Below are positions 15,031-39,179 of a stretch of DNA of 64,000 bases, in pieces. The notes under the pieces are model-generated. The model searched no databases. It was not told the origin of the DNA and saw only the letters and a list, made by a program, of their open reading frames with translations. The stretch lies in assembly GCA_014435945.1 (NCBI GenBank), contig GCA_014435945.1_4088.1, one strand, 5' to 3'. The position numbers and the translations under genes are program-made. This DNA is from a phage. Within the stretch, counting starts at the first letter, position 1. Every line of letters begins with the position of its first letter.

Positions 15031-15038
15031 CACATAAT

Positions 15039-15429: not shown

Positions 15430-15430
15430 T

Positions 15431-15619: not shown

Positions 15620-15629
15620 AGAGGCCAAT

Positions 15630-15836
15630 ATGAACGAACAGAAAGAATTTTACACCAAATACCTCAGCAACGAAGAACAATTGTTTCTAAGGAGTGTATC
15701 ACCTTTAAGTTTAGATACACCACACGCCAGACATTGCTTTAATAATTGTATACGTAGTACTCTAGAAGCTTTAGAAAACAATAACAAAAAGATTCAGTAC
15801 TCAGGTGTAATAGGACTAATATTCTTCTATGAATAA
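15630..15836 (+). CDS. small protein, paralog family A
   Basis: Start moved to ATG 15630 (MNEQKEFYTKYL). Confidence 0.58.
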   Translation: MNEQKEFYTKYLSNEEQLFLRSVSPLSLDTPHARHCFNNCIRSTLEALENNNKKIQYSGVIGLIFFYE

Positions 15837-16008
15837 CTATAAAGAATTCTACATAAGCCATCTGGATATAAACTCCCAAATGCTTATACCACTAAAACCA
15901 ATAGATTTCAAGGATAAGAAAAATACCCAACAATTTATTGACCATACTGACTGTGCGGTGAACCAAAATTATATGTACTACATTCTCGCCCTAATATACA
16001 GGTACTAA
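15829..16008 (+). CDS. small protein, paralog family A (59 aa)
   Basis: Hand-translated MNNYKEFYISHL...LIYRY. Confidence 0.55.
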   Translation: MNNYKEFYISHLDINSQMLIPLKPIDFKDKKNTQQFIDHTDCAVNQNYMYYILALIYRY

Positions 16009-16009
16009 T

Positions 16010-16195
16010 ATGCATAGAGAATACTACACACAATTTGTTAAAGGGAACTACAAACACGCCGTCCCCGTAAACCCCTTAAATTCTAATGACCCAAGTACTA
16101 TATTCTTGTTCCATGACGCAATACGTACAGTACTCAATACTAAAGATGAACAGGTGCAGTACGTATTCTTACTTTTACTTATATACAGACACTAA
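16010..16195 (+). CDS. small protein, paralog family A
   Basis: 61 aa; MHREYYTQF. Confidence 0.6.
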   Translation: MHREYYTQFVKGNYKHAVPVNPLNSNDPSTIFLFHDAIRTVLNTKDEQVQYVFLLLLIYRH

Positions 16196-16200
16196 CTAAT

Positions 16201-16410
16201 ATGAATAATGAACATAAAGAATTCTATTCCAAACACCTCAGCCAATCAGAACAAATGTTTCTAAGGACTACACCACCTTTAAGTACTAATACATATTTCG
16301 GCAGAGTATGCTACAATAATTGTATTCAAATGACTTTAAACGCAAACGCCAATGGTAACAGTACTAACCTGTACTCAGGCATCATAGGTATACTATTTCT
16401 ATATGAATAA
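16201..16410 (+). CDS. small protein, paralog family A
   Basis: 69 aa; close paralog of 15630. Confidence 0.6.
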   Translation: MNNEHKEFYSKHLSQSEQMFLRTTPPLSTNTYFGRVCYNNCIQMTLNANANGNSTNLYSGIIGILFLYE

Positions 16411-16585
16411 AGAACATAAAGACTTCTATATAAGAAAACTAACATTCGTCCCCGTAAGAATATACAAAGAATGCGACCCAAGATTATACCTATGGCACTT
16501 CAATGAGTGCATAAAAGATTCTATATACCCTAAGAACTATAAAGAACAATTGATCTCAGTACTAACACTAGTACTATCATATTAA
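16403..16585 (+). CDS. small protein, paralog family A
   Basis: 60 aa; MNKEHKDFYIRKL. Confidence 0.6.
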   Translation: MNKEHKDFYIRKLTFVPVRIYKECDPRLYLWHFNECIKDSIYPKNYKEQLISVLTLVLSY

Positions 16586-16598
16586 TAGAGATAATACT

Positions 16599-16781
16599 AT
16601 GTATAAAGACTTCTATATAAGTAAACTAAAAGAAAACGAACAAGCATGGGTTAACAATTTAATCCCCTTGGCAATGACTCAATACGAATTTAATATGTGT
16701 ACAAAGATTGTTTTAACTACTAATGATATCTCTAATACGTACTACTTCCTAGTAAGAGTACTATATGGTACTTTGAAATAA
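16599..16781 (+). CDS. small protein, paralog family A
   Basis: 60 aa; MYKDFYISKL. Confidence 0.6.
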   Translation: MYKDFYISKLKENEQAWVNNLIPLAMTQYEFNMCTKIVLTTNDISNTYYFLVRVLYGTLK

Positions 16782-16792
16782 TAAGGTATACT

Positions 16793-16999
16793 ATGCAGAA
16801 CATAAAAAATTATAAAGAGTACTATATAAGTAAACTACCACCGACTGACCAAGCATGGATTAGATCTATAATAGTACTTGCATTTAATAGATATGCATTT
16901 AACAGATGTACCGAGATTGCTATAGACCCTTATAATATTAAAGAGAATGTACAGCATAATCAGTACTACTATATGTTAATGCTTATATATAGGAAGTAA
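16793..16999 (+). CDS. small protein, paralog family A (last member)
   Basis: 68 aa; KEYYISKLPPTDQAW. Confidence 0.6.
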   Translation: MQNIKNYKEYYISKLPPTDQAWIRSIIVLAFNRYAFNRCTEIAIDPYNIKENVQHNQYYYMLMLIYRK

Positions 17000-17122
17000 T
17001 TCAACATATAGACAGGGGAAGCTCCGCAGGGAAAGCATTGGACAGGCTTTAACATATGTTATATATGTTAAAATTCAGCCTGGACAAATGCGATCACTAG
17101 GATTCTCCCCAGGCTAAACCCC

Positions 17123-17410
17123 GTAATCATATGTAGTCATAAGTAATCATATATAAACATTTAAGTAATCATTTATAATCACAGTAGTGATCAGTAGTGA
17201 GTACTAGAGTGTAATAGAGTGTAATAGAGTACAGGAATGTGCACGTTTAATCAAGAACGTAGCAGTACTGCCCCAAAAGTATTCAGTACTGAAGGTGTCG
17301 ATATGCCACTAAGTAGGCAGAGGAAGTCTGCCGTACTTTGTAGTTTCCAAGCTCCTTTTCCATTTTGCAAATTACATCAAATGTAATCAAAAGTAATCAC
17401 GCAATGATTA
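17123..17410. repeat. Cluster of short direct repeats (GTAATCA units; AGTGTAATAGAG x2; AGTAGTGA x2)
   Basis: Read directly; non-coding. Confidence 0.5.
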
Positions 17411-17676
17411 GTACTGAATTATTACTTTCACCTTAATTACAATTACCCTTTTACCCTTCGGGGTAAAATTCCATTACCCCTTGAGGCTCCAGCAAAAAGT
17501 TGGTTAGTACTCCATCCTAAATCTCGATCCTAAAAATTTTGGAGTACCTATGAAATAAAAGTTGGATCTTCGAAAGTTGAAATTTACGTTGGGACGTTTA
17601 TGATTTGTGGGATATAATGATGTTTGTAGTCGGGTAGTTCTCAAGAATATCAGTACTGAATGGTGAAAGAAAGTTA

Positions 17677-17704
17677 TTGACATTATGATTCAGTACTGTA
17701 TAAT
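17677..17704 (+). promoter_or_regulatory. Orphan sigma70-like promoter (TTGACA-N16-TATAAT) with no downstream ORF
   Basis: Downstream about 100 nt contains two CCUCCU tracts; candidate small RNA. Confidence 0.4.
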
Positions 17705-18105
17705 GTTCTACATAGAGAGATGAGTTGCTGCGAACAATTCATTTACTCTACCTCCTGTCGTGAGACAGTACAGAAAAGATAGTTCCTCCTATTGGTGGTG
17801 CATCTTTTTGAACCTCATATGAAAATCGTAATAACAGTACTGATATTAACAGAATGGTATTAGTACTGATTTTAATCTAAAGCATTATGCCACCAGCTTG
17901 TGCTGGTGGATTCCCTCTAACAGTATTCAGTACTACATGATGGTCTTCATCCTCCTAGGGTAACATAGTGAGGGCTATGATGGCAGTACTGAATACTCCT
18001 TTCACAAGATAGATCTATGGTATAGTACTGACGGATTTTGGGCGTAGTTACCCTGGGTGGATTTTGGACGTAGATATGTCTAGCCCTCCAGAAGTCTGGA
18101 AGTAA

Positions 18106-18222
18106 AGATGGCTATCCATCTAGACGGCTAAACGGCTAGATTTCTAGATGGCTGTATGGCTAGACGTTTGGACGGCTAAACGGCTAGATGGTTACACGTC
18201 TGGATGTATAGACGGCTAAATC
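18106..18222. repeat. Iteron-like direct repeats (ACGGCTAAACGGCTAGA / GGCTAGA units) followed by AT-rich tract
   Basis: gacggctaaacggctagat occurs twice, plus related tagatggct/tagacg units; candidate origin or packaging site. Confidence 0.5.
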
Positions 18223-19005
18223 AAAATTTTTATTTTGTTTTTTCCAATAGTTCCCCTACCGCGTGGGGATAGTTTCCCCGCAGTATCTGGAGTTAGATTT
18301 TTCTGAATCTGGAATCATTATCCCCGTTTTAGCCTGGTATGTCAACCGCCTGGATGAATATTTTTAAAAAATAATCTAGTACTGAATTTTGGGCGTAACT
18401 ATGCACCCGGTGGGCTTGAGTCTTTCTCGACTTGATGGAACTATTATACAGTACTGGAAAAATAAAGCAATACCCTGGAAGCAAAAAAGTTTTAATTAAT
18501 TTGCTTGCTATCCTGGGCCGGACTATGGTACTATATTTCAGTACTGAGAAAGTGCGTTTACCTGCTAGGGTGCGGGAGTGTATCCTTTTTAAATTTACTG
18601 AATTTTGGGCGTAATTCCGCACCCCCAGGGGTATCCGCTTTCTCGCGTCTATGTAGTAATTATACGCTTTTTCGGTGCTGAGTCAATAGCTAAAAACAAA
18701 ATAATTGAAAATAATTTAACGCGTTTAAACGGCCCGTAAAGCCCTGGTTAGCTGGTGGCGGTGCAAATGTATAGCTTAGGTGTATTAATGCGTTAGAATG
18801 CGATTGAGGACGTTTTACGGGGTATAGTACTGATTCAGTACTGAAAGATTGTTCTCCCTGGATTGTTCCAGTACTCCTATATAGAAAGAAAACTATTTTA
18901 AAAGTATTTGTAGAAAGTACTTGCAAAGTATTGGGAAAGGTGTAGAATGTTTTACATCGAGACGGGGGATACGCTCCCGACTCACTTTTAAAAGAGATTA
19001 AAACG

Positions 19006-19368
19006 ATGGCGACTCAAATCAATACTATCATGCTTAACCTGGTTTCTTTCCGTGAAGAGATGAAAGATCTTCCCGCTGAGACTGTACGGATTCACATTGC
19101 AGCTTATCGGGAATTGATTGCAATGCTGCCGCTTAAGCGTGAACAGTACGCCGCTACTGCAATGCTGGACGCAATGATACATAAGATGATCCAGACTGAT
19201 TTAACGATGGCTTATCAGTACATGGGCGAAATGTTTGCAGTGTATAGCAAGCCAGTACCAGGAATGGAAAGTACAGAAGTATTACACGGCTTAAACTTAA
19301 AACAAGATGCATGGGATAATATGCCTCGTTTCCTGGTATGGGCTGATAGTGGAAAGATTTACGAATAA
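19006..19368 (+). CDS. hypothetical protein
   Basis: 120 aa; upstream TTGCAA..TAGAAT promoter and leader hairpin. Confidence 0.6.
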   Translation: MATQINTIMLNLVSFREEMKDLPAETVRIHIAAYRELIAMLPLKREQYAATAMLDAMIHKMIQTDLTMAYQYMGEMFAVYSKPVPGMESTEVLHGLNLKQDAWDNMPRFLVWADSGKIYE

Positions 19369-19382
19369 GTTTTTAAAAGTAC

Positions 19383-19410
19383 TTGCAAAGTAAGTTTAAA
19401 GGCGTATAAT
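19383..19410 (+). promoter_or_regulatory. sigma70-like promoter (TTGCAA-N16-TATAAT), class I
   Basis: Consensus repeated before many early genes. Confidence 0.6.
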
Positions 19411-19422
19411 ACTTTACATCAG

Positions 19423-19441
19423 GTGGGGAATAGTTCCCCAC
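19423..19441 (+). promoter_or_regulatory. Conserved 5' leader hairpin GTGGGGAA-tag-TTCCCCAC
   Basis: About 12 nt after -10 box; same motif downstream of about 30 promoters. Confidence 0.55.
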
Positions 19442-19461
19442 TATATAAGAGGATTAAAAAA

Positions 19462-19701
19462 ATGGCTAAATCAAAAATGTTCTTAGGTCACAAAAACAAA
19501 ACTCAATGGAATGTAAGCCTTTGGATTAATAACGACGAATCATTATACCGGTTGGCCCAGGACTTTATTGCCGCTAACACTAATCGTAATGATGCGGCCC
19601 GTCATATGATGCTATTTTTAGAACAGACTGGACAAGATAAAACGCCGGACGGCTTTAAGTATAGCACTACTGCGATCCGTGCGGCGATGGTTGGAATGTA
19701 A
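19462..19701 (+). CDS. hypothetical protein; paralog of 21854-22093
   Basis: Start moved to ATG 19462 (MAKSKMF); shared C-term TPDGFKYSTTAIRAAMVGM. Confidence 0.6.
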   Translation: MAKSKMFLGHKNKTQWNVSLWINNDESLYRLAQDFIAANTNRNDAARHMMLFLEQTGQDKTPDGFKYSTTAIRAAMVGM

Positions 19702-19784
19702 TAGAATATATTAAAAGTACTATTGCACGGTGATAGTACTTTATAATAGTGTTTTATTCATACACCAACGATAAGGGTAACAGC

Positions 19785-20051
19785 ATGAATATTATATATT
19801 TTGCGACGCGTGAACAAGCTCGGATCGCCGCACGCCAGGACGGGGCGACGTTTAAAGATATGGGCGTACAATCGGAACGTGGTAAACGTTGGGCCATTGT
19901 AAAGCGTAGTACCGCCAGATCATTACAGTACTGGTTAGCGGCCTTAAAAAGACCCGATAGTGTATCGCGACGAGTGGTAGAAATAAAGCTCGACCGAAAG
20001 GGCAACCGCGTGACCGTGTACCGTACTAAAAAGATTGCAGTACTTGAATAA
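19785..20051 (+). CDS. hypothetical protein; paralog of 32976-33380
   Basis: Start moved to ATG 19785 (track start is GTG); shared FATREQARI and DRKGNRVTVY. Confidence 0.58.
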   Translation: MNIIYFATREQARIAARQDGATFKDMGVQSERGKRWAIVKRSTARSLQYWLAALKRPDSVSRRVVEIKLDRKGNRVTVYRTKKIAVLE

Positions 20052-20058
20052 AAAGTAC

Positions 20059-20086
20059 TTGCAAACTAAGTTTAAAAGCGTATAAT
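20059..20086 (+). promoter_or_regulatory. sigma70-like promoter, class I
   Basis: TTGCAA 20059-20064, TATAAT 20081-20086. Confidence 0.6.
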
Positions 20087-20100
20087 GTTTTACATCGAGA

Positions 20101-20117
20101 GCGGGAATAGTTCCCGC
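20101..20117 (+). promoter_or_regulatory. Conserved 5' leader hairpin GCGGGAA-tag-TTCCCGC
   Basis: Inverted repeat read directly. Confidence 0.55.
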
Positions 20118-20138
20118 CTATAACCTGGAGTAATAAAA

Positions 20139-20369
20139 ATGACTAATATGTATATGACTGAAGTTAAAACCGTAAAAGATACTACCACTAATAAAACTAC
20201 TTACTTACAGCGGATCTGTGGTGTATGGCAACGTATCAGAAAATCAAAGTACTTTAAATTAACATCATATGCAAACCGTTCGGATTCATTCAGTACTGAA
20301 ATAAAAGGTAATAAAGTACACCAATACGGCACTTATTATTATTATAGCCTGGACGCGATTGCAGTATAA
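20139..20369 (+). CDS. hypothetical protein
   Basis: 76 aa ORF after promoter and hairpin. Confidence 0.55.
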   Translation: MTNMYMTEVKTVKDTTTNKTTYLQRICGVWQRIRKSKYFKLTSYANRSDSFSTEIKGNKVHQYGTYYYYSLDAIAV

Positions 20370-20654
20370 GCAGTTTACAAATCTTTACAATTGCCAGTAT
20401 TGACTTATTTTGTCAGTACTGGCATAATGTATTCATTGGCAGATAAGCCGTAGCCCATAGGGTGCGGAAGTGTATCTATAGAAAAAGTAGTTTAGTACAG
20501 TTACAATTGTGCACCCGGTGGGTTAGCTGTTGTCATGGGGTATATTATACCAGTACTGGATAGTGCTGTCAATACTTTTTTTACTATTCAGTACTGAAAA
20601 ACTATTTGATAAAAAGTACTTGCAAACTATGTTTAAAGGCGTATAATGTTTTAC

Positions 20655-20730
20655 ATCAGGACGGGGAACGAAATAAGTAACTTCCCGTTAAGTAGCCCAG
20701 GAGTAAGGCACACGAAAAACTCCCCTGATA
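20655..20730 (+). ncRNA. Conserved ~75-nt structured leader element, copy 1 of 3
   Basis: ggacggggaacg...aagtag...cgaaaaactcccctgat recurs at 24012-24090 and 31788-31870. Confidence 0.35.
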
Positions 20731-20797
20731 AAATAGTTTGACAATTGTTTTTAAAAGCGTATAATACTTACATAAACTACTGAATGAGGGTTACAAA

Positions 20798-21409
20798 ATG
20801 AAAACTATCACTACTACTACTTATGTTATGGATTTTTCTGAATTGAACGCAGAACAAAAAACGTCAGCTATCGAACTAGTTCGGGAACGTGAAAAAAACT
20901 CAAACGACGATTATTTTTCTGAAAGTGAAATTGAACACTATAAAGAAACAGTATTGCCGGAATATGGCATTAATGACGCTGAAATACAATTCAGTGGTTT
21001 TTGGTCCCAGGGTGACGGTGCATCAATCAGTACTGACCACGTTGACGCAGTGAAGTTTTTACGCAAGGTAAGAGCATTAACTAAGTATCGCTCAATCCGT
21101 CACCTGCTGAATGAAGATGATTTGGCGATGAGTGTAAAGCGTTCGCACTCCCACTACTCGCATGAGAATACTGTAAGCGGGTACATTGAATCGGCTTACA
21201 CTGATTTAACCGCAAAACAAGAAACGTTAGTTAATGAGCTTGAGGAACTACTCACTGACACTATTCGTGAATTATCCCGCAAGTTGTACCGTGATTTAGA
21301 GAATGCATATGAGGATCAATTCACTACTGAAAACATTACGGCACTGATTGAGGGTAACGAATATCAATTCAATGTTATTGATGGCGTAGTAGAATCAATC
21401 GAATATTAA
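20798..21409 (+). CDS. hypothetical protein (203 aa, acidic)
   Basis: ORF with own TATAAT promoter (20740-20790). Confidence 0.6.
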   Translation: MKTITTTTYVMDFSELNAEQKTSAIELVREREKNSNDDYFSESEIEHYKETVLPEYGINDAEIQFSGFWSQGDGASISTDHVDAVKFLRKVRALTKYRSIRHLLNEDDLAMSVKRSHSHYSHENTVSGYIESAYTDLTAKQETLVNELEELLTDTIRELSRKLYRDLENAYEDQFTTENITALIEGNEYQFNVIDGVVESIEY

Positions 21410-21421
21410 TTTAAAAAGTAC

Positions 21422-21449
21422 TTGCAAACTAAGTTTAAAGGCGTATAAT
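21422..21449 (+). promoter_or_regulatory. sigma70-like promoter, class I
   Basis: TTGCAA-N16-TATAAT. Confidence 0.6.
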
Positions 21450-21462
21450 ACTTTATATCGAG

Positions 21463-21481
21463 GCGGGGAGTGGTTCCCCGC
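21463..21481 (+). promoter_or_regulatory. Conserved 5' leader hairpin GCGGGGA-gtggt-TCCCCGC
   Basis: Inverted repeat. Confidence 0.55.
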
Positions 21482-21502
21482 TCATACTAAAAGGGTAACA
21501 AA

Positions 21503-21769
21503 ATGAAAACTTTAAATATCACAACTGCACATCAATTGGTTCGGGATGCGATGGATCATGTGCAAGATTTCTTCCCTGATGTAAGTGTAGTGACTTATGA
21601 AAAAGGTACTTGGACTTATTCAACAATTAACGGTTATGAGCCTGATTTTGATGATCTGGAAGAAATGGAATTTAATTTTGATCTGCTGAATGATGCCGCC
21701 CGTGAAGTGGGAAACGATGTTCAATACATTGATGGAGTAGTCGCACCTGATGCCGTAAAAGGATTATAA
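21503..21769 (+). CDS. hypothetical protein
   Basis: 88 aa; SD AAAGGG. Confidence 0.6.
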   Translation: MKTLNITTAHQLVRDAMDHVQDFFPDVSVVTYEKGTWTYSTINGYEPDFDDLEEMEFNFDLLNDAAREVGNDVQYIDGVVAPDAVKGL

Positions 21770-21775
21770 AAGTAC

Positions 21776-21803
21776 TTGCAAACTAAGTTTAAAGGCGTAT
21801 AAT
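21776..21803 (+). promoter_or_regulatory. sigma70-like promoter, class I
   Basis: TTGCAA-N16-TATAAT. Confidence 0.6.
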
Positions 21804-21816
21804 ACTTTATATCGAG

Positions 21817-21835
21817 GCGGGGAGTGGTTCCCCGC
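21817..21835 (+). promoter_or_regulatory. Conserved 5' leader hairpin
   Basis: GCGGGGA-gtggt-TCCCCGC, identical to 21463 copy. Confidence 0.55.
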
Positions 21836-21853
21836 TCAAACGAGGATTAAAAA

Positions 21854-22093
21854 ATGGCTAGTACTAAAACTTACAACGGGCACAAAAACAAAACTCATTG
21901 GAATGTTTCCTTATGGATTAATAACGGTGAGTCATTGTATCGGCTTGCTCAAAGTTGCATCGCACAAAGTAGAACTAAAGATATTGCTGCGGAATGTATG
22001 TACCGCAGATTAAAAGCCAACGGTACTACTACAACGCCGGACGGATTCAAGTATAGCACTACGGCGATCCGTGCTGCAATGGTTGGAATGTAA
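21854..22093 (+). CDS. hypothetical protein; paralog of 19462-19701
   Basis: 79 aa; HKNKTHWNVSLWINNGESLYRLAQ shared. Confidence 0.6.
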   Translation: MASTKTYNGHKNKTHWNVSLWINNGESLYRLAQSCIAQSRTKDIAAECMYRRLKANGTTTTPDGFKYSTTAIRAAMVGM

Positions 22094-22151
22094 TATTCAG
22101 TACTGTAACAATGGCGGGGAATGGTTCCCGCCTTTATTGAGGGTTTATCTA

Positions 22152-22412
22152 ATGAGTAAAGTAATTAACTATACAGTACTAAGCAAGTCATTATCTATTA
22201 GCCAGTGCACCGATGGTTATTGGTTTTATGATGAAACGCGTGGAATGAATTTAGCTATGCGTGCAAAAACTGCTGAGGCGGCGTATCTTGAGGCACTGGA
22301 ATACTACCAGGAACGTTTAACGGAAGTAGAAGAAGATTATAAAAGCCTCAAAGCGAAAGTAGATCATTTCGTCGGTCAATTCATCGAGGAAGACGCCGAC
22401 AAACAATATTGA
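22152..22412 (+). CDS. hypothetical protein
   Basis: Start moved to ATG 22152 (MSKVINY) after leader hairpin. Confidence 0.55.
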   Translation: MSKVINYTVLSKSLSISQCTDGYWFYDETRGMNLAMRAKTAEAAYLEALEYYQERLTEVEEDYKSLKAKVDHFVGQFIEEDADKQY

Positions 22413-22498
22413 AAAAGTACTTGCAATTAGTTTTCAGTACTGTATAATGGTTTACATCAAAGGGAGAAATGGTTCTCCCTGGTAATGAGGAAAATAAA

Positions 22499-22720
22499 AT
22501 GGCTAATATCACTACTCTTTCCCAACTGGAAGCACTGGTTAAATCTATGCGGGAACATGCCGACAAAATCGGCGTACAAGATCCAGCCGTTTGCTTCTGC
22601 GACGAATTGAATGATGATACCCTGGTAATAGCAGAAGTCCAGGACGTTTCTAACTATTCCTCGCGTTACACTGGCGGCGTAGCAAATAAAGGTGACTTCT
22701 GTTTATACCTTACAAAATAA
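22499..22720 (+). CDS. hypothetical protein
   Basis: Start moved to ATG 22499 (MANITTL). Confidence 0.58.
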   Translation: MANITTLSQLEALVKSMREHADKIGVQDPAVCFCDELNDDTLVIAEVQDVSNYSSRYTGGVANKGDFCLYLTK

Positions 22721-22963
22721 CAACGCGGGGAGATAATAACTCCCCGTTACTTTTTCAGTACTGAATCATTTAATAGACGGATCTCGGCACCCGGTGGGTT
22801 AGTGACTGTTTCGTCTTGATGTAGTAATTATGCCAGTACTGGATGCACTTGTCAACAATTATTTTCCAAATACTTTTTATTAAAATACTTGCTATTAGTT
22901 TTTAAACGCGTATAATGTTTTGCATAGGGGGAGCGGTTCCCCTGGTAACTAAGGAATAAGAAA

Positions 22964-23200
22964 ATGGTCGAACAAATCAAATCAACGTCTTCGAATGTAA
23001 CGGGAACGGTAGCACACTTTACTAGTGATGAATCGCGGGGCGTTCCCTATTGTGCTGTACATGTAAACACTGAGGGTAACTACTGGTTTACGGTTTACGG
23101 ATCATATTCATTTGGACGGCCAGGGCATCAAAAAATTCTGGATAAAGTACAACCAACGGGTAAAAATATCACTGCCGAAATGTTTTATAAAAAATCATAA
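22964..23200 (+). CDS. hypothetical protein
   Basis: 78 aa; promoter and hairpin upstream. Confidence 0.58.
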   Translation: MVEQIKSTSSNVTGTVAHFTSDESRGVPYCAVHVNTEGNYWFTVYGSYSFGRPGHQKILDKVQPTGKNITAEMFYKKS

Positions 23201-23284
23201 AGTACTTGCAATTAGTTTTTAGTACTGTATAATATTTTACATCGCAAGGGGAAACGGTTTCCCCTGGTAACTAAGGATAATCAA

Positions 23285-23584
23285 ATGAAAGTAGCAATCA
23301 TCGCCCTGGCTTTATCTGTTTCCTCTTTCGCTGTTAATGCGTCGTTAGATGTACCTGGTGATAAATTCATTCAGTGCACCGTAGCAATGACAGATGAAAG
23401 TACTGGCGAGATTGTATTAAAGGATTTAGAGATCCAGCCGGAAGCATTTAAAAACGGCCCGTTCCATGAAGAAGACGAAAACGGTAGCACAACAATTTAT
23501 TATGATGCCAGTACTAAACGTGGTTCTGTCACTGTAATGGATACGGAGAAAGTAACTCACACCGGAGTAATTAACTGTTTATAA
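23285..23584 (+). CDS. hypothetical secreted protein
   Basis: N-term MKVAIIALALSVSSFAVNAS looks like a signal peptide. Confidence 0.6.
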   Translation: MKVAIIALALSVSSFAVNASLDVPGDKFIQCTVAMTDESTGEIVLKDLEIQPEAFKNGPFHEEDENGSTTIYYDASTKRGSVTVMDTEKVTHTGVINCL

Positions 23585-23666
23585 TAGTTTGACTATGTAT
23601 TACAGTACTGTATAATAGATACATAAGGGGCGAATAGTTTGCCCCTGGCATAAAGGGGAAAACATT

Positions 23667-23897
23667 ATGACAGCACGAATTGTTTTACTTAACGCTGGAA
23701 GTACTACACAACTCCTTAACGCCGTGCATTATGATATTGAAACGAGCGTTAATCTTATCAGTACTGTAGTACTATTGGACACTGGAAAGGTCGCCAATGA
23801 TAAAGCGATTGCAGGTATACTAACTGATCTCAAGCCTGGTAGCAGTACGCCAATAACGTTAAATGGCAAAGTGTTTAATATTTTACTTACTGATTAA
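23667..23897 (+). CDS. hypothetical protein
   Basis: 76 aa; SD AAGGGGA. Confidence 0.55.
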   Translation: MTARIVLLNAGSTTQLLNAVHYDIETSVNLISTVVLLDTGKVANDKAIAGILTDLKPGSSTPITLNGKVFNILLTD

Positions 23898-23903
23898 GTA
23901 CAT

Positions 23904-23930
23904 AGCCCACCTGGTGGGCTTTTTTGTTTT
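23904..23930 (+). terminator. Intrinsic terminator
   Basis: GCCCACC-tg-GTGGGC followed by TTTTTTGTTTTT. Confidence 0.65.
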
Positions 23931-24011
23931 TGTAGTATCGTAGTACTGAGATACTTTAAAAATAGTTTTAAAAAAGTAGTTGACATTACCACAAAAAGGC
24001 GTAGAATGTAT

Positions 24012-24090
24012 TACATCAAGACGGGGAGCACTAAGTAGACCGCCAGTAAGTCGAACGAAAAACTGGACACGTCGAGAAAACTTTGATACA
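24012..24090 (+). ncRNA. Conserved structured leader element, copy 2
   Basis: caagacggggagcactaagtag...cgaaaaact; between promoter and gene 24131. Confidence 0.35.
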
Positions 24091-24130
24091 CTAATAAACG
24101 TAAACTAAACTTTAATTGAGGATTTATAAA

Positions 24131-24613
24131 ATGGCTAATGTAAAATCATTCATCAAAGCACTGGTAGCAAATGAAACTAACGTCGCGGCAGAGATCCTGG
24201 CTGAACTGGATAACGATACCATGAAAGCGGTACGCAATAATTTTAACATCGCGTACAGTACTGCGAAAGAACTACAAGCAAATAAAGCGGCAGAAATTGA
24301 AGCGGCAAAGGCGGCCCGTGAAGCAGAACTACAAGCAACAATCGAAAGTATTCAGGCGGCAGTAGTTGGATTGGATCTGGAAGTAGTTACAGAGATGGCA
24401 CAAAAAGCCCTGGCGGTTAAGTATGGGGAAGACAAGCCAGAAGTAAAAGCCAAAAAATGGATTCAGGAACGCGTAGCGGTAGTACTGGACAACGGGGAAG
24501 AATATCTGATTCCGGTGCGTGGTAACTGCATTGCGGTAGTACTGGATGCGATTAACTCCAGTGGTATGACTCGCGAGGAATGGATCGAAGCTCATCGCAA
24601 AGTTGAAGCATAA
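24131..24613 (+). CDS. hypothetical protein (Ala/Glu-rich, predicted helical)
   Basis: Start moved to ATG 24131 (track start is TTG); SD GAGGA. Confidence 0.58.
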   Translation: MANVKSFIKALVANETNVAAEILAELDNDTMKAVRNNFNIAYSTAKELQANKAAEIEAAKAAREAELQATIESIQAAVVGLDLEVVTEMAQKALAVKYGEDKPEVKAKKWIQERVAVVLDNGEEYLIPVRGNCIAVVLDAINSSGMTREEWIEAHRKVEA

Positions 24614-24634
24614 CAATTAAAGTACTGAATCACT

Positions 24635-24662
24635 AGCCCACCTTAAACGGTGGGCTTTTTTG
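24635..24662 (+). terminator. Intrinsic terminator
   Basis: AGCCCACC-ttaaac-GGTGGGCT followed by TTTTTTG. Confidence 0.65.
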
Positions 24663-24898
24663 TGTTTATCGTTTACCAGCTCCACATCACCGCCTAGAAA
24701 CGATTCTAACGCATTAAACTGATTATCTGATGCATTGCCCTAGCTGGTGGCGTTAAGGTCGTTGTAATGCGATTGAGAGCGTTTAAAGTATTTTGCAAAA
24801 AGTAATAAAAAGTACTTGCACGATTAAGAGATTAGCGTATAATGTTTTACATCGAGAGGGGGAAACGGTTCTCCTTCCAAATCAAAGGAATAAAAACA

Positions 24899-25126
24899 AT
24901 GGCTATTATCATTACTCGCGTATCTGGTACTACTGGCAACGAACAAGTAGTTGCAGTCATTACCAACAAGGAAGGTGCGGAATTGCAAAATGCAATGAAT
25001 ACCTGGGCCGTTAATGAGTTCGGTCAGTGGGCAAGTGTAGCATACATTGAAACCTATCAAGTGCCGTCGATTAGTTTAACTGATTTGGGCGTTGAGCGTA
25101 TCCTTTGCCTGGATGAATTAAATTAA
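24899..25126 (+). CDS. hypothetical protein
   Basis: Start moved to ATG 24899 (MAIIITRVSG). Confidence 0.58.
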   Translation: MAIIITRVSGTTGNEQVVAVITNKEGAELQNAMNTWAVNEFGQWASVAYIETYQVPSISLTDLGVERILCLDELN

Positions 25127-25212
25127 AAAAAGTACTTGCAAAGTAAATCGAATAAAGTATAATACATTACATCAAGGGGAGAAATGGTTCTCCCCACTAC
25201 AAGGAAACTAAA

Positions 25213-25356
25213 ATGAAAACTTGTCAATGTGGTCAGAAATCTATTACGGGTTTAAAGCGGGGCGTTGCTCTTTGCCAGTACCATTATAATTTACAAGTAT
25301 GGGGTAAAGAATGGGCCGACCAGGTGGAAGCAGCAAAGAAAGCAAAAAGTAAGTAA
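25213..25356 (+). CDS. small Cys-containing protein (47 aa)
   Basis: Hand-translated MKTCQCGQKSITGLKRGVALCQYHY...; promoter, hairpin and SD upstream. Confidence 0.45.
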   Translation: MKTCQCGQKSITGLKRGVALCQYHYNLQVWGKEWADQVEAAKKAKSK

Positions 25357-25420
25357 AAATATTATCACAGTACTATTGACATAGTTTGATAGTACTGGCA
25401 TAATAGATTTTATCAAGACA
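25349..25420 (+). repeat. 72-bp promoter cassette, copy 1 (exact duplicate of 25641-25712)
   Basis: gtaagtaaaaatattatcacagtactattgacatagtttgatagtactggcataatagattttatcaagaca. Confidence 0.6.
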
Positions 25421-25435
25421 ACTGAGGAAAATAAA

Positions 25436-25648
25436 ATGGCTATCATCACTAAAATCAAAGTTAACAAATCACTGGTTAAGCTGGAAGAAGTGAAAGAAGG
25501 TTATAAAGTATCTTGGTGCGGCATGTATCGGATATTCACTGATATTGATGACGCAATCAATTATTACAGCGACACGGTTAAAAACTTTGTTCGTGCTGAT
25601 GTGGTTATGGCAGTGGCAACGCACAAAGCAGCGAAAGAAAGTAAGTAA
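25436..25648 (+). CDS. hypothetical protein
   Basis: 70 aa; MAIITKIKV. Confidence 0.58.
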   Translation: MAIITKIKVNKSLVKLEEVKEGYKVSWCGMYRIFTDIDDAINYYSDTVKNFVRADVVMAVATHKAAKESK

Positions 25649-25712
25649 AAATATTATCACAGTACTATTGACATAGTTTGATAGTACTGGCATAATAGAT
25701 TTTATCAAGACA
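25641..25712 (+). repeat. 72-bp promoter cassette, copy 2
   Basis: Identical to 25349-25420; includes last codons (KSK/ESK-stop) of upstream gene. Confidence 0.6.
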
Positions 25713-25737
25713 ACATATTAATTTAAGGAATACAAAA

Positions 25738-26061
25738 ATGGCTAAAACTATCATTAACACCGTTTCCCTGGCTGCAATCCGTGCAATCAATGTTGACGGT
25801 AAACGTTGGACTGATTCATATGGCAATACTTATCATTCTTGTCATGTAAGCGTTGAACTGGATAACGGTTTGAATGATCTGGCGGTTGAATCATTTACTT
25901 ATGGCTATGAAGATGCATATCAACAAACGGCGTTATCTCTCTTAAAGGAATCAGTAGACGGGCTTAATACTGATGAAACCTCCCTTACTCGTGTGTGCAA
26001 TGATCTTAATATCCCGTTGCATTGTACTGTACAGAATGTTAAACGCAAAAAAGATCTTTAA
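25738..26061 (+). CDS. hypothetical protein; paralog of 32566-32889
   Basis: Shared RWTDS[YH]GNTYHSC, FTYGY and C-term VKRKKD. Confidence 0.6.
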   Translation: MAKTIINTVSLAAIRAINVDGKRWTDSYGNTYHSCHVSVELDNGLNDLAVESFTYGYEDAYQQTALSLLKESVDGLNTDETSLTRVCNDLNIPLHCTVQNVKRKKDL

Positions 26062-26141
26062 TTAGCTTTACTTTATGCAGATACTTTGATATAGTGTCTG
26101 CATAGGGGAAAGAAATTAAATTAACTTAAGAGGATCGTATA

Positions 26142-26411
26142 ATGAAAAATATCAGTACTTTAATCGATGCAGGTACTCATGTTCGTCGGTCTATGGTTGC
26201 AACCAGTACTACAAAACAAGTAGCGAGCGGTTATCTTGTATTTGTGCACGATGGTAAACTCCTGGAACGTTCAATCAATTTTGATGTTAAAAACAATTGC
26301 CGTTTTATTATCTTTAAGCGTGAGCAATATAAAATTGATTTACCAGCAAAGCCCATTAGTGGGGCGTACAACGTGCAATCATTGTTTGAACGTCAACCAT
26401 ACACCTATTAA
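26142..26411 (+). CDS. hypothetical protein
   Basis: 89 aa; SD AAGAGGA. Confidence 0.55.
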   Translation: MKNISTLIDAGTHVRRSMVATSTTKQVASGYLVFVHDGKLLERSINFDVKNNCRFIIFKREQYKIDLPAKPISGAYNVQSLFERQPYTY

Positions 26412-26462
26412 TCAAAACATCGTTAGCGGTCGATTCAGGCCGCTTATATTGGGGATTATACC

Positions 26463-26735
26463 ATGAACGTTAATCAAGTACTGAATGAGATCGAAAGCAT
26501 CATTAAACCGATGAAGCGTACTGATGCTATGTTAACACCGGAAGAATGCCGCCTTTATGAGCGTTACAGCGTCGAACAAGTCCAGGCAATGGCTATGGCT
26601 ACCCCAGCCGTTAAACCGCCTGAGAATGCGTTACAGGACGTTACAGGGGATTATATCATCAATCCAGTACTAGGGAAGATGGCTGCAATCACCGAAGATC
26701 AACAAGACTACTTAAGCCAGTACTTAAAAGGTTAA
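26463..26735 (+). CDS. hypothetical protein
   Basis: 90 aa. Confidence 0.55.
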   Translation: MNVNQVLNEIESIIKPMKRTDAMLTPEECRLYERYSVEQVQAMAMATPAVKPPENALQDVTGDYIINPVLGKMAAITEDQQDYLSQYLKG

Positions 26736-26740
26736 TTAAT

Positions 26741-26950
26741 ATGCTTACTGTACAGGATAAGATCGACATCTTAAAGGTTAATATGTATGTGATTGATGCC
26801 GTACCTGGTAAAGTATTTGCATACGATGACACTACTGTAAGCGATTTCTACTATAGCCAGGCCGTGGGGGATCTTTCTGTACAGTCGGTTATTGAAAACG
26901 TAGTTAATGCAGCGTATGAGCATTTACTTTCAAATAGTACTTGCAATTAG
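26741..26950 (+). CDS. hypothetical protein
   Basis: 69 aa; close-coupled to upstream gene. Confidence 0.5.
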   Translation: MLTVQDKIDILKVNMYVIDAVPGKVFAYDDTTVSDFYYSQAVGDLSVQSVIENVVNAAYEHLLSNSTCN

Positions 26951-27019
26951 TTTTTAAACGCGTATAATGTTTTACATGAAGGGGAGAAATGATTCTCCCC
27001 ACTAATTAAGGAATATGAA

Positions 27020-27166
27020 ATGAAAGCATCAAAAAAGAGTACTAACAAGAAAGCACGTTCAACCTTAGATGGGGTATTCCCTTTACGTTTTGTTGATGAA
27101 GTAGTTTCCTACCCGCCGGGCCTTACTCCTGAGATGGTAGAAAGTTTGCGTAAATCTAAAAAATAG
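27020..27166 (+). CDS. small basic protein (48 aa)
   Basis: Hand-translated MKASKKSTNKKARS...; promoter and hairpin upstream. Confidence 0.45.
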   Translation: MKASKKSTNKKARSTLDGVFPLRFVDEVVSYPPGLTPEMVESLRKSKK

Positions 27167-27248
27167 TACTTGCAATTAGTTTTTAGTACTGTATAATAGT
27201 TTACATGAAGGGGAAAACGTTCCCCTTACACCTAACGAGGAAAGTATA

Positions 27249-27500
27249 ATGGAAACAATTTTAATCAAAGACACTGCTACTACTGTAACTTATGATAATG
27301 ATTGCATTATCCCAGGGACTGAGTACGGCGAACGTGTACCCGTTCAAGTAGAGATTGATACCACATACATCGACAAGGCTGACCAGTGTATCACTATTGT
27401 AATTGGTGAATATCGTTTTCTACCAGAAGAGATCCAAAAATGGCAGAATATGATTGACCGTGCGAAATTAGTCGCACAAAGTTTAAAATACAAAGTTTAA
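27249..27500 (+). CDS. hypothetical protein
   Basis: 83 aa; SD AACGAGGAAAG. Confidence 0.58.
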   Translation: METILIKDTATTVTYDNDCIIPGTEYGERVPVQVEIDTTYIDKADQCITIVIGEYRFLPEEIQKWQNMIDRAKLVAQSLKYKV

Positions 27501-27586
27501 AATAATACTTGCAATTAGTTTTTAAACGCGTATAATGTTTTACATGAAGGGGAGAAATGATTCTCCCCAATAACAGGAGAAACAAA

Positions 27587-27739
27587 ATGAAACAATACAA
27601 CGCTCGGTTTGATGTTACTATCGGTAACGGCAAAGGTCAATTCTCTTTCAGTACTCGCAAAAGTTATACAGAAAACTTCCTGCGTAATTGTGCACTGACC
27701 GCCGCACAAATTAAACATTACTTTCAGGCTAAAAAATGA
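27587..27739 (+). CDS. hypothetical protein
   Basis: Start moved to ATG 27587 (MKQYNARF). Confidence 0.55.
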   Translation: MKQYNARFDVTIGNGKGQFSFSTRKSYTENFLRNCALTAAQIKHYFQAKK

Positions 27740-27825
27740 AATCATTAGCTTATTACAGTTCGGCCCTGGTCGGTGCATTGATCGCGGCATTGTTAGTAAC
27801 CTATCTATTCTTTATGGTGATTTAA
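27736..27825 (+). CDS. small hydrophobic peptide (29 aa, single predicted TM helix)
   Basis: ATGA overlap with upstream stop; MKSLAYYSSALVGALIAALLVTYLFFMVI. Confidence 0.4.
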   Translation: MKSLAYYSSALVGALIAALLVTYLFFMVI

Positions 27826-27969
27826 ATGAATCCAACAGGCTTAAATTATAAAAGTTGTTCGGCGTTTACGAAAGCAAATAAAGCGAATGCACGTAAAGCG
27901 AAAGTACAGGAATACATCAAGCAAGGCATGACGCGAAAGGCGGCGATTCTAAAAGCTAAAAATAAATGA
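27826..27969 (+). CDS. small basic protein (47 aa)
   Basis: Starts directly after upstream stop; Lys/Ala-rich. Confidence 0.4.
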   Translation: MNPTGLNYKSCSAFTKANKANARKAKVQEYIKQGMTRKAAILKAKNK

Positions 27970-28000
27970 AAAAAGTGGTTGACTCCGGTCAGCCATTTTG
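27970..28000 (+). terminator. Terminator-like hairpin (A-run, GTGGTTGAC..GTCAGCCAT, T-run) at start of repeat module
   Basis: Same module at 31633, 34899 and 37657. Confidence 0.45.
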
Positions 28001-28179
28001 CTATTATATATTCATTGAGAGATAGCTCACTAGCCCACAGGGTGCATAAGTGTATCTATTATATAAGTATTGAGTACTGAAAACTATTTTTAAAAAGTAC
28101 TTGCAAACTATCTCAATAAGCGTATAATGTTTTACATCGCAAGGGGAAATGGTTTCCCCTGGTAATAAGGAAACGAATC

Positions 28180-37682: not shown

Positions 37683-37886
37683 GCTATTATATACGCATAG
37701 ACAAAAACTAGCCCACAGGGTGCATAAGTGTATCCAAAATATATAGTTAATAACGGTGAGTAACTATCTGCTGGTGGAGTGAAAACTATTAATAAAAAAA
37801 AGTATTGACAAAGTATATCAGTACTGCAATAATGTATCTCGTAGGGCGGCAATGGTGCGACGGCCCACAAAGTTAGGAGATTCAAA

Positions 37887-38219
37887 ATGACTACTTCAAT
37901 CGCTATCGTTAAAGCTTTCATCCGTACTAATGTTTCCTCTGTATTCATCGACGGCCTCGACCGTAACGTAGAATACTCAATCATTATCGCACAAACGGCA
38001 AACGGTTCTCGGTACATCCTGAATGATAGTGAAGCAAATCACTACTACTTCACTAAAGCCACTGGCTTTAAACGCATCGATGCTGATGTAGTATACGCTA
38101 AGATGAATAAGCTGGTAGACAAGATTAACGCGAAAGGTACTATCGATTTACAGTACTGGACCGAAACCGATCCAGAATATGGATCTCACCGCTACCTGAA
38201 TCCAGGTATTAAAATGTAA
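37887..38219 (+). CDS. hypothetical protein
   Basis: 110 aa; SD TTAGGAGA. Confidence 0.6.
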   Translation: MTTSIAIVKAFIRTNVSSVFIDGLDRNVEYSIIIAQTANGSRYILNDSEANHYYFTKATGFKRIDADVVYAKMNKLVDKINAKGTIDLQYWTETDPEYGSHRYLNPGIKM

Positions 38220-38308
38220 AAAGTACTTGCATAGTACTTAGATTCATGTATAATGTTTTACATAGAGAGGGGGAAATGGTTCTCCCTCCTAAATTAAGGA
38301 GTTTTATC

Positions 38309-38710
38309 ATGACCTTCTCAATCACTTCCTTCGCTGACGTTTTAGTACTGGCTCGGACTTTTGGTAAAGATGCACTGGAGTACGCTGTAAGTAATGGCAC
38401 TATCCAACCGGAACAGTGCCGCATCATTGGAAACTGCAAACGTTGGGCGGTATCCAATACTATTGCACTGGAAAACTTCAACGATGGCAACAATGAATAT
38501 TCTGTTGATGTAGTATTCGAAGCCGTAGACCTGGGCGGTATCTATAACACTAACCTGAATGATGTGCGTATCGTTCGCACTGGCTTCGGTGCTTATGATG
38601 TATCTATCCGTGAAGCTATGGACAAGGGATACATTAGCAAGGACTTACTTGCTCACATCATGCAGCTATGGACGGAACGTAACGAAGCACGTACTATCTT
38701 AGGGCTGTAA
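38309..38710 (+). CDS. hypothetical protein
   Basis: Start moved to ATG 38309 (MTFSITSFADV). Confidence 0.58.
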   Translation: MTFSITSFADVLVLARTFGKDALEYAVSNGTIQPEQCRIIGNCKRWAVSNTIALENFNDGNNEYSVDVVFEAVDLGGIYNTNLNDVRIVRTGFGAYDVSIREAMDKGYISKDLLAHIMQLWTERNEARTILGL

Positions 38711-38734
38711 GCAATACACATCACCAAACATCAT

Positions 38735-38754
38735 AGGCCGCTCTCTAGCGGCCT
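38735..38754 (+). terminator. Hairpin AGGCCGC-tctcta-GCGGCCT (terminator-like, no T-run)
   Basis: Perfect 7-bp inverted repeat after stop. Confidence 0.35.
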
Positions 38755-38778
38755 TAACTATATCAGGAGTACATACAC

Positions 38779-38988
38779 ATGATCTATACAGTATACAACG
38801 TTCTAGGCACTATTGCAGGCGTACATGATAACGTCGATAGTGCTATGCGTACAGTACTGCAACAGGTTCCACTAAAGCCTAAGACCATTAAGCAGATGAC
38901 AGCACGACTAACCAGGGCGACGGCTGGCGTGGAAGTATGGCAGGACTATGGGGATACACAGATAATCGTAAGCGTAACGAAGGATTAA
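38779..38988 (+). CDS. hypothetical protein
   Basis: 69 aa; SD CAGGAG. Confidence 0.55.
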   Translation: MIYTVYNVLGTIAGVHDNVDSAMRTVLQQVPLKPKTIKQMTARLTRATAGVEVWQDYGDTQIIVSVTKD

Positions 38989-39019
38989 TGCGTAAAGGGA
39001 TCTAGTACTGATTCAGAAA

Positions 39020-39083
39020 AAAGTCAAGGCGTTTTTAAAATTATGCGTTAAAAAAATGCATAGGTAATCCCTTGACTTTTTTG
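39020..39083 (+). terminator. Long inverted repeat AAAAAAGTCAAGG ... CCTTGACTTTTTT (13-bp arms, ~38-nt spacer)
   Basis: Perfect complementarity; sits between early region and family B operon. Confidence 0.4.
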
Positions 39084-39179
39084 AAATAAAAGGGATTGGA
39101 CTATGGCAAAATGCGTAGGGGGCTAAAGGGCGGGTAACCTTAGCGACTTCGATAAAGGGGTATTACTTATAAAATGTTA

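Follow-up and report, generated by a model that had tools for sequence, protein, structure and literature searches.

The 64,000-nt window analyzed here (contig GCA_014435945.1_4088.1 of assembly GCA_014435945.1; coordinates are window positions unless another genome is named) derives from an Asteriusvirus jumbo coliphage of the 121Q/PBECO4/G17 group. It contains a block at 17000-19005 for which a reading of the letters alone (the original prediction) had proposed a replication origin built on iterons or, as an alternative, a pac or terminus region. We found that the packaged chromosome ends at a fixed nucleotide inside this block, 17311/17312. The block is composed of 312 bp of unique DNA, the cut itself, and the first 1,694 bp of a direct terminal repeat (DTR) of 21.8 kb. 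We consider it probable that it forms the non-coding boundary and leader of this repeat, i.e., a cis-acting region for the handling of DNA ends, and not an iteron origin. The supposed iterons are, judged by their sequence, 14 tandem 8-bp boxes that score as an operator of the host repressor MetJ under published criteria, and the initial 1.7 kb of the repeat, although free of genes, surpasses the gene after it in conservation.

The 2.2 kb around the block share 90-94% identity with 42 phage records, nearly all of them Asteriusvirus (121Q, PBECO4, G17, phAPEC6, and others). Records of ~350 kb hold this region once, those of 370-384 kb hold it twice, ~19-22 kb from the record end, and the two copies pointed to a long DTR. 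The position of the virion DNA end is given by five independently deposited linear records (G17, BF17, fEgEco12, vB_Ec-M-J, and WPEC5), all of which start or end at 17311/17312: the terminal bases AGTAGGCAGAGGAAGTCTGCC are the first bases of BF17, fEgEco12, and vB_Ec-M-J and, reverse-complemented, the last bases of G17 and WPEC5. The first 300 nt of fEgEco12 are 100% identical to the window from 17312 onward, and the fEgEco12 paper states that its ends were verified with PhageTerm and with restriction digests; the experimental ends are those of fEgEco12, with the isolate of the window being placed by sequence match. The terminus alternative of the original prediction is thereby borne out, as the physical end of the virion DNA falls inside the block and matches the published fEgEco12 termini. 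The terminus itself had escaped that prediction, as had three Chi sites, a 12.6-fold excess of AGTACT, and the minus-strand promoters described below.

For G17 and BF17, the second end of the repeat falls at 39140. In G17, genes 1-53 are repeated at the right end, and the offset yields a repeat of 20,668 bp; BF17 shows the same gene-for-gene duplication with a repeat of 20,590 bp according to its record. Lengths of 20,993 bp in fEgEco12 and 21,525 bp in vB_Ec-M-J (where a repeat_region is annotated) are in the same range. Published coverage data point in the same direction, with a terminal redundancy of ~20 kb indicated for G17 (PMC6563267) and a 22.5-kb repeat determined by read depth for the relative CBB (PMC5259590). 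The chromosome end of this phage group is thus located in a block annotated as empty, or with spurious open reading frames (ORFs) and one "terminator". Correct termini and essential cis elements are useful for engineering and rebooting therapeutic jumbo phages.

The cut is flanked by short direct repeats. GTAATCA-type repeats had been noted at 17123-17410, and we found five exact copies there (17123, 17143, 17165, 17383, and 17393), i.e., 5 of the 24 copies in the window within 280 bp. At P1 pac, hexamer repeats stand on both sides of the cleavage point. The arrangement here is alike in that short repeats flank the cut, with three GTAATCA to the left of it and two or three to the right. It differs in that P1 packages by headful with permuted ends, whereas the ends here are fixed and identical in five records, and in that the GTAATCA repeats, which the terminase may recognize, are spread over ~280 bp. 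At the opposite repeat end, the gap 38987-39140 contains no GTAATCA repeats and no stable hairpin in a fold test. What this gap does contain are four AATGCGT/ATGCATA-type repeats, a TTGACT...AAGGGATT inverted pair, and GGCTAAA just before the cut.

Comparison with seven Asteriusvirus relatives revealed that 17312-19005 is mostly 0.90-1.00 identical versus 0.70-0.78 for the first gene, with the stretch just outside the cut (17170-17310) being the most variable (0.44-0.80) and changing in repeat copy number. In the same set of relatives, every ORF of at least 39 aa in the block is interrupted by stop codons or frameshifts in one or more genomes, with one exception, a 44-aa ORF with a TTG start at 18605-18739 that overlaps a conserved promoter/RNA unit. 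The earlier statement that the block holds no convincing ORF therefore stands, and gene order on both sides also agrees with its description as a divider between the family A operon and early-type genes: small plus-strand genes together with minus-strand RCC1-like paralogues lie on one side and early-type plus-strand genes on the other. Repeats are abundant in the block, with 18 direct-repeat families and 47 inverted pairs. Within the genus, 17080-17140 is conserved at 0.98-1.00, and three islands are kept in other genera, namely 17487-17555, the box array together with the following TTCCAATAGTTCCCCTACCGCG, and the unit 18599-18665. The first island was recovered by blastn at 84-93% identity in Kaldavass, GAP32, and Munch, and at 78% in a metagenomic relative. 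A scan of IMG/VR for the post-array motif as an exact IUPAC pattern returned four contigs, all known relatives (121Q, Serratia BF, Yersinia fHe-Yen9-04, and one metagenomic contig).

The ATTTTGGRCGTA element, formerly listed with three copies, is real and present in four (18035, 18061, 18386, and 18602), with no others in the window. Among the several hairpins that had been pointed out, those at 17009-17116, at 17890-17909, and at the 17312 start beat shuffled sequences, whereas the GGGGA..TCCCC hairpin (18264-18279) is weak (z = -1.7).

The supposed iterons (18106-18222) had been described as abutting an AT-rich tract, and a head-to-tail array of 8-bp units at 18106-18217 indeed adjoins such a tract at 18218-18245. 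In register, the units (AGACGGCT) resemble the MetJ metbox consensus AGACGTCT, with CTAG at the box junctions, and we read the array as MetJ boxes because its units match the host MetJ operator matrix. Scoring used the half-metbox weight matrix and thresholds of Augustus and Spicer 2011 (PMC3228920), applied unchanged and with no E. coli operators as control. An operator is defined there by at least two directly adjacent 8-bp boxes, each with at least one quarter of the consensus score, and a site score of at least the consensus score (PMC3228920). The array reaches 105 bits against a site threshold of 12.58, with 3.2-10.7 bits for the individual boxes, and is the sole passing run in the window. 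The per-box threshold is reached by 1.4% of 8-mers, and none of 300 shuffles gave a run of more than 3 boxes, compared with the 14 observed. In the 121Q genome (348.5 kb) the locus is likewise the only multi-box array, and seven other two-box matches correspond to the number expected by chance. Similarity to the MetJ operators of the gammaproteobacterial methionine regulon thus extends to directly adjacent 8-bp boxes, all of which pass the thresholds, and to the CTAG junctions; the phage array differs by its 14 boxes (28 in Aeromonas phage AhSzq-1), by its location between convergent promoters, and by the lack of a methionine gene downstream. It lies 794-905 bp inside the repeat boundary; counted from the promoters that read toward it, the distances are ~400 nt for the plus-strand promoter at 17677 and ~90-200 nt for the minus-strand one at 18345.

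Similar arrays were found in other phages, the longest one in AhSzq-1 (Table 1). Their hosts, as named in the phage records, belong to MetJ-bearing orders (Enterobacterales and Aeromonadales), which we take from established taxonomy. MetJ homologues are listed for Enterobacteriales, Aeromonadales, Vibrionales, Pasteurellales, and Alteromonadales (PMC3228920). In AhSzq-1 the array occupies a gap whose gene order matches the surroundings of the injection stop signal (iss) of T5, and in phiKT a non-coding gap between late and early genes, which is the genome junction according to gene order. The annotated repeat of PR1 spans 1-10,461, placing its array (9620-9691) 770-840 bp inside the boundary. 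The real sequence ends of Serratia BF, AhSzq-1, and phiKT were assigned from gene order and synteny. Scanning IMG/VR for five consecutive loose boxes yielded 36 loci. Most were perfect 8-bp microsatellites from viruses that are unrelated or giant, and the informative matches came from this phage group and three T5-family genomes. Our literature search found no paper linking metboxes to phage genomes; the accessible portions of the CBB, G17, fEgEco12, and Davison T5 texts do not describe the contents of this block, and those of Davison's T5 text mention neither MetJ nor Chi.

Several observations accompany these arrays. The AhSzq-1 array is directly followed by a GGGGTGGCCACCCC palindrome and three AGTACT copies, echoing the combination seen in the jumbo phages. 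The iss-equivalent block of PR1 (9500-10050) holds DnaA boxes at 9511 and 9524, nine near-consensus MetJ boxes, and Chi at 9865 (minus) and 10024 (plus). Where relatives lack the MetJ-type array, their equivalent non-coding blocks contain clustered palindromes that resemble Fur boxes (matching GATAATGATAATCATTATC at 15-17 of 19 positions). Fur-like positions in equivalent loci are 2132-3508 in RaK2, 776-800 and 2343 in Munch, 1034 in Serratia BF, and 9653-9712 in T5, where they fall at the injection-stop region; the chance expectation is ~0.6 per 64 kb per strand. These clusters suggest a wider theme of host-regulator sites at repeat boundaries. We tentatively propose that three unrelated long-terminal-repeat families carry super-arrays of host-regulator boxes in non-coding DNA beside a boundary or junction, which would represent a new class of host-takeover cis-element. 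The families concerned might be Rak2-like jumbo myoviruses, T5-like siphoviruses, and a T7-like podovirus, a grouping we offer with reserve and in which the boundaries of AhSzq-1 and phiKT are the ones inferred above. The boxes would then differ between carriers, possibly being MetJ sites here, Fur-like sites in relatives, and DnaA sites in PR1 and, following Davison, in T5. Their role could conceivably be that of a transcription-factor sponge, acting on methionine and S-adenosylmethionine (SAM) here and on iron uptake or replication control in relatives, or that of a docking platform for DNA entry. As a companion trait, and again speculatively, the repeat may be armoured with oriented Chi sites that pass the incoming linear DNA to RecBCD-RecA for circularization.

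The window contains 12 Chi sites (GCTGGTGG) versus 0.5 expected, all inside 17312-39140 and 11 of them on the plus strand. In 121Q, 10 of the 29 genomic sites lie in the 20.2-kb repeat, which accounts for 5.8% of the genome, and the pattern in G17 and BF17 is alike. RecBCD reads Chi on the 3'-ended strand, so that the plus-strand sites act on an enzyme arriving from 39140 and the single minus-strand site on one arriving from 17312. The repeat appears shielded from RecBCD, above all on the side of the 39140 end. The back-to-back Chi pair at 17890-17909, annotated as a terminator in G17, is also present in Salmonella phage Munch. Strong enrichment of the exact octamer and its orientation to a free DNA end are shared with the Chi-mediated protection of linear DNA against RecBCD (Dabert, Ehrlich and Gruss 1992) and with Chi-rich lambdoid phages (Genome Res 2025, PMC12315714). 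In contrast to these systems, the enrichment here is confined to the terminal repeat of a virulent jumbo phage and comes with an inverted pair 578 bp from the other end. Such a wealth of Chi in the repeat hints at how a linear genome of 370 kb could withstand RecBCD and circularize without a known end-protection protein.

Taken together, the following sequence of events can be envisaged. The terminase would recognize the junction flanked by GTAATCA heptamers and cut at 17311/17312, and packaging would run rightwards, so that the 39140 end would be the last to enter the capsid and the first to leave it. Once the DNA has been injected, RecBCD would be stopped by the Chi sites, 11 of 12 facing the 39140 end and one the 17312 end, which would subsequently channel the DNA into RecA-driven recombination between both copies of the repeat. 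The array may bind MetJ-SAM cooperatively and act as a sponge derepressing methionine and SAM synthesis or, alternatively, as a roadblock between the convergent promoters. The iteron origin is thereby replaced by a specific and testable reading, as the repeats should bind host MetJ. If MetJ binds, three phage families would use arrays of host-repressor sites beside their DNA ends, phage DNA entry or takeover would be linked to methionine/SAM metabolism, and the 50-year-old question of T5 injection-stop function would gain a new handle.

In position and make-up, the block comes closest to the iss block of T5 at the inner edge of its long repeat, a block reportedly treated by Heusterspreute in 1987, Wang in 2005, and Davison in 2015 and 2020. 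The annotated T5 record gives a left repeat of 1-10,219, the iss at 9140-10149, and a gene-free gap at 9157-10936; most of its pre-early genes, including dmp, A1, and A2, are directed toward the end, those of a second block inward. T5 Repeat Region 3 measures 1.2 kb, lies mostly in the repeat with a 270-bp overrun, is rich in repeats and palindromes, and is better conserved than the ORFs of the repeat, and Davison proposes that its DnaA boxes stop injection (10.1101/866236). In both phages, a long repeat with early genes for host takeover has at its inner edge 1-2 kb of untranslated DNA that overruns the boundary (by 270 bp in T5, 312 bp here), is densely packed with direct and inverted repeats, and is conserved above the level of neighboring ORFs. 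Arrays of host DNA-binding-protein sites are a further shared trait, with PR1, AhSzq-1, and PSTCR5 carrying comparable MetJ-type arrays there. Differences are found in the repeat length (21.8 kb versus ~10 kb), the carrier, here a T4-like jumbo myovirus, and the two-step transfer, which is known from T5.

A number of points weigh against the interpretation of the block as an end-handling region with MetJ-type boxes. All functions assigned to it derive from sequence. No motif shared by the cut sites 17312 and 39140 was seen, and GTAATCA repeats stand at the former only; the two cuts probably use different signals. The equivalent blocks of Munch (3.7 kb) and RaK2 (5.2 kb) lack the array, which consequently is an accessory element and not essential to the group. 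The commonest box, AGACGGCT, deviates from AGACGTCT at position 6. Natural MetJ operators have about 2-5 boxes, from which an array of 14 departs. Real MetJ operators furthermore stand over a promoter with a gene to follow, which the array does not, and lie on average ~75 bp from the start codon (PMC3228920). The orientation of Chi in PR1 does not fit protection of the leading end. In relation to T5, the block is without DnaA boxes, and a tblastn search of T5 A1/A2/dmp and PR1 A1/A2 against 121Q gave no homologues (best E = 0.13), though distant analogues are possible.

The last two points also count against a true injection stop, according to which the 39140 end would enter first, the early genes of the repeat would be expressed, and transfer would pause at the block until early proteins release it. 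We regard this as doubtful, even though the T5-like layout with early genes reading toward the end and a conserved, repeat-rich non-coding block of 1-2 kb overrunning the boundary by ~300 bp, the like box arrays in the iss-equivalent gap of PR1, AhSzq-1, and PSTCR5, and the orientation of 11 of 12 Chi sites toward protection of the 39140 end, as expected for the end exposed first, all speak for it. MetJ is a soluble protein with no obvious means to hold DNA at the membrane, and we found no report of two-step transfer for this group in the accessible literature.

It is unlikely that the array is instead bound by a phage protein of the ribbon-helix-helix centromere type or the small-terminase type, making it a packaging or partition site. 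Short repeats in tandem typify pac sites as well as the centromere sites of ribbon-helix-helix proteins, and the distance to the boundary, ~0.8 kb, is constant here and in PR1, both in line with this idea. However, the same 8-mer consensus recurs in three phage families of different taxa, the terminases of which are unrelated, the match to the MetJ matrix is extreme, and Munch and RaK2 must package their DNA without the array. No MetJ homologue was found in the phage by tblastn, with the limit that small ribbon-helix-helix proteins could escape such a search. A related comparison, together with the processing of concatemer junctions, concerns the SRL/SRR repeats next to the terminal repeat of T7-like phages, reportedly described by Dunn and Studier in 1983, which are likewise tandem short repeats just inside a fixed end, with host-polymerase promoters nearby, one of them facing the end. 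The 9-box array of phiKT brings the same consensus into the T7 family, between late and early genes at the presumed junction. The terminal repeat here is >100 times longer than those of T7-like phages, and the T7 repeats differ in sequence and period from the array.

The promoters of the block, as recognized by consensus, face both directions, several of them pointing toward the genome end. The promoter and element of the unit at 18617-18686 are conserved in Kaldavass, Munch, RaK2 (two copies), Serratia BF, and Yersinia fHe-Yen9-04, and for the two-hairpin element heading from the promoters at 18686 and 18470, four of seven predicted pairs show compensatory changes with no one-sided ones. The conservation of minus-strand promoters with correct -35/-10 spacing in five genera, these compensatory changes, and the 12/12 consensus of one promoter would be compatible with a block that is mainly a small-RNA gene cluster, with the leftward promoter-hairpin units and the transcript from 17677 acting as regulatory RNAs. 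We consider this improbable. Rfam provided no family match, the single hit of a permissive E-value scan of 16500-19500 being a chance miRNA (E = 0.87), the minus strand is without an intrinsic terminator, and the hairpins comprise just 3-4 bp. Early mRNAs of the phage also begin with a 5' hairpin, so that the units may be orphan promoter-leader modules, and the terminus, the Chi sites, and the box array would be left unexplained.

The replication origin of the original prediction was not supported. Iteron-type origins have helically phased iterons of ~17-22 bp and an adjacent initiator gene. Here, the units are 8 bp long, head to tail, and match a host-repressor operator, and no initiator gene is annotated on either side, the flanks being small hypothetical early genes. 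DnaA boxes (TTWTNCACA) are absent from 16950-19050, and the block has no strict IHF consensus sites. Cumulative GC skew, the check named together with that prediction, was run on the whole assembled 121Q genome in 10-kb bins: the skew lies between +0.06 and +0.18 in all bins except over minus-strand gene blocks, and the cumulative curve climbs from start to end without an origin-type V. Its one dip, a local minimum at 135,676 (218 bp inside the repeat), stems from the upstream minus-strand RCC1-like genes and a 4-kb plus-strand run with negative skew. As the skew follows gene strand, is positive on both sides, and shows no replichore pattern, an origin is not supported. The skew would be compatible with an origin activated by transcription, analogues of which are T4 oriF/oriG and the T7 origins of promoter plus AT-rich region. 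An origin in which initiator-bound repeats melt the A/T tract, or an R-loop from the 18345-18317 promoter primes the encoded T4-type replisome (gp43, gp41, primase, and clamp loader), is improbable despite the adjoining A/T tract of about 27 bp, the strong promoter firing into it, and the local skew minimum at the 121Q equivalent, given also the blocks of Munch and RaK2 without an array and the comparable arrays at an annotated repeat boundary (PR1) and at inferred boundaries or junctions (AhSzq-1 and phiKT).

Table 1. Features of the block and the terminal repeat, and MetJ-type arrays in other phages. Promoters and transcribed elements are predictions.
Feature	Genome	Position	Strand	Remarks
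Direct terminal repeat	window	17312..39140	.	21.8 kb; single copy in the collapsed window; both ends mapped from G17 and BF17
First virion nucleotides	window	17312..17337	+	hairpin starting at base 1 (first 26 nt), z = -4.4
Other repeat end (...GGGCGGGTAACCT)	window	39100..39140	+	short intergenic gap with AATGCGT-type repeats
Long imperfect hairpin	window	17009..17116	+	follows the last upstream gene; lies ~200 bp outside the repeat; -22.7 kcal/mol, z = -6.3
Left GTAATCA-type cluster	window	17123..17181	+	3 exact copies plus variants, 130-190 bp outside the cut; conserved 0.94-0.98
Variable stretch outside the repeat	window	17182..17311	+	CAGTAGTGAT twice in tandem, GTAATAGAGT three times, two CAGTACTG palindromes; length differs between phages
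Right GTAATCA cluster	window	17376..17399	+	65-88 bp inside the cut; three copies in vB_Ec-M-J
Cross-genus island	window	17487..17555	+	inverted repeat AGTACTCC ... GGAGTACC; 0.97-1.00 within the genus
Perfect sigma-70 promoter TTGACA-16-TATAAT	window	17677..17704	+	12/12 consensus; CAGTACTG in the spacer; reads into the repeat; conserved 0.94-0.98
Back-to-back Chi pair CCACCAGC-ttgt-GCTGGTGG (= CCACCAGCttgtGCTGGTGG)	window	17890..17909	.	578 bp from the left end; hairpin z = -4.1
ATTTTGGRCGTA pair	window	18035..18072	+	the other two copies (18386, 18602) lie within promoter/RNA units
MetJ-type boxes	window	18090..18217	.	14 consecutive in-register 8-bp boxes at 18106-18217, one more at 18090
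A/T tract, then TTCCAATAGTTCCCCTACCGCG	window	18218..18262	+	tract 18218-18245, about 27 bp; TTCCAATAGTTCCCCTACCGCG conserved across genera
Sigma-70 promoter TTGACA-17-GATAAT	window	18317..18345	-	11/12 consensus; leftwards through the GGGGA..TCCCC hairpin, A/T tract, and box array
Unit c1: promoter TTGCTT-16-TATAAT (18470-18443) and two-hairpin transcribed element (predicted)	window	18401..18470	-	
Unit c2: promoter TTGACT-16-TATAAT (18686-18659) and two-hairpin transcribed element (predicted)	window	18617..18686	-	11/12 consensus
Third Chi of the block	window	18751..18758	+	exact octamer
Promoter of the first repeat gene TTGCAA-16-TAGAAT and leader hairpin	window	18921..19005	+	gene ATG at 19006
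Chi sites	window	17890-, 17902+, 18751+, 24743+, 29358+, 29868+, 30819+, 31718+, 34064+, 35968+, 37547+, 37770+		strand given with each position
MetJ-type array	Asteriusvirus, all sequences checked			12-16 boxes
MetJ-type array	Serratia BF			Eneladusvirus; 13 boxes
MetJ-type array	Erwinia pEa_SNUABM_12			Eneladusvirus; 14 boxes
MetJ-type array	Yersinia fHe-Yen9-04			Eneladusvirus; 11 boxes
MetJ-type array	Cronobacter GAP32			Mimasvirus; 13 boxes
MetJ-type array	Erwinia Kaldavass			unclassified relative; 14 boxes
MetJ-type array	Aeromonas AhSzq-1	locus positions 3951-4250		T5 family; 28 boxes in a row, 221 bits; longest array found
MetJ-type array	Providencia PR1			T5 family; 9 boxes
MetJ-type array	PSTCR5 (Providencia)			T5 family; 9 boxes
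MetJ-type array	E. coli phiKT			T7 family; 9 boxes

The palindrome AGTACT occurs 270 times in the window versus 21.5 expected (12.6-fold), the next palindromic hexamer reaching 3.3-fold. It is densest at 13000-24000, i.e., around the block, and follows the extended consensus TnCAGTACTGnA. Copies lie in the spacers of promoters, immediately upstream of -35 elements, and also within genes; in the equivalent loci of five further genera the enrichment is 19-27-fold. The consensus of SlmA, GTGAGTACTCAC, has a core equal to AGTACT; SlmA sites were rejected as an explanation, as the flanks prefer C/T before and G after the core, opposite to GTGAGTACTCAC.

The genes upstream of the terminus are arranged in two runs. 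About 17 tandem plus-strand genes of ~60 aa each occupy 12900-16999 (131358-135194 in 121Q), with a GC skew of -0.12 to -0.20 and a strongly positive AT skew, unlike the plus-strand genes just past the repeat boundary, which show a positive GC skew. Further upstream (1-12900, corresponding to 117089-131255 in 121Q), the minus strand carries at least 12 tandem paralogues of an RCC1-like "DNA condensation" gene, for every one of which a separate terminator is predicted in the G17 annotation. The paralogues stop shortly before the small-gene run and the genome terminus, and in GAP32 and Kaldavass the RCC1-like family also lies beside the equivalent block.

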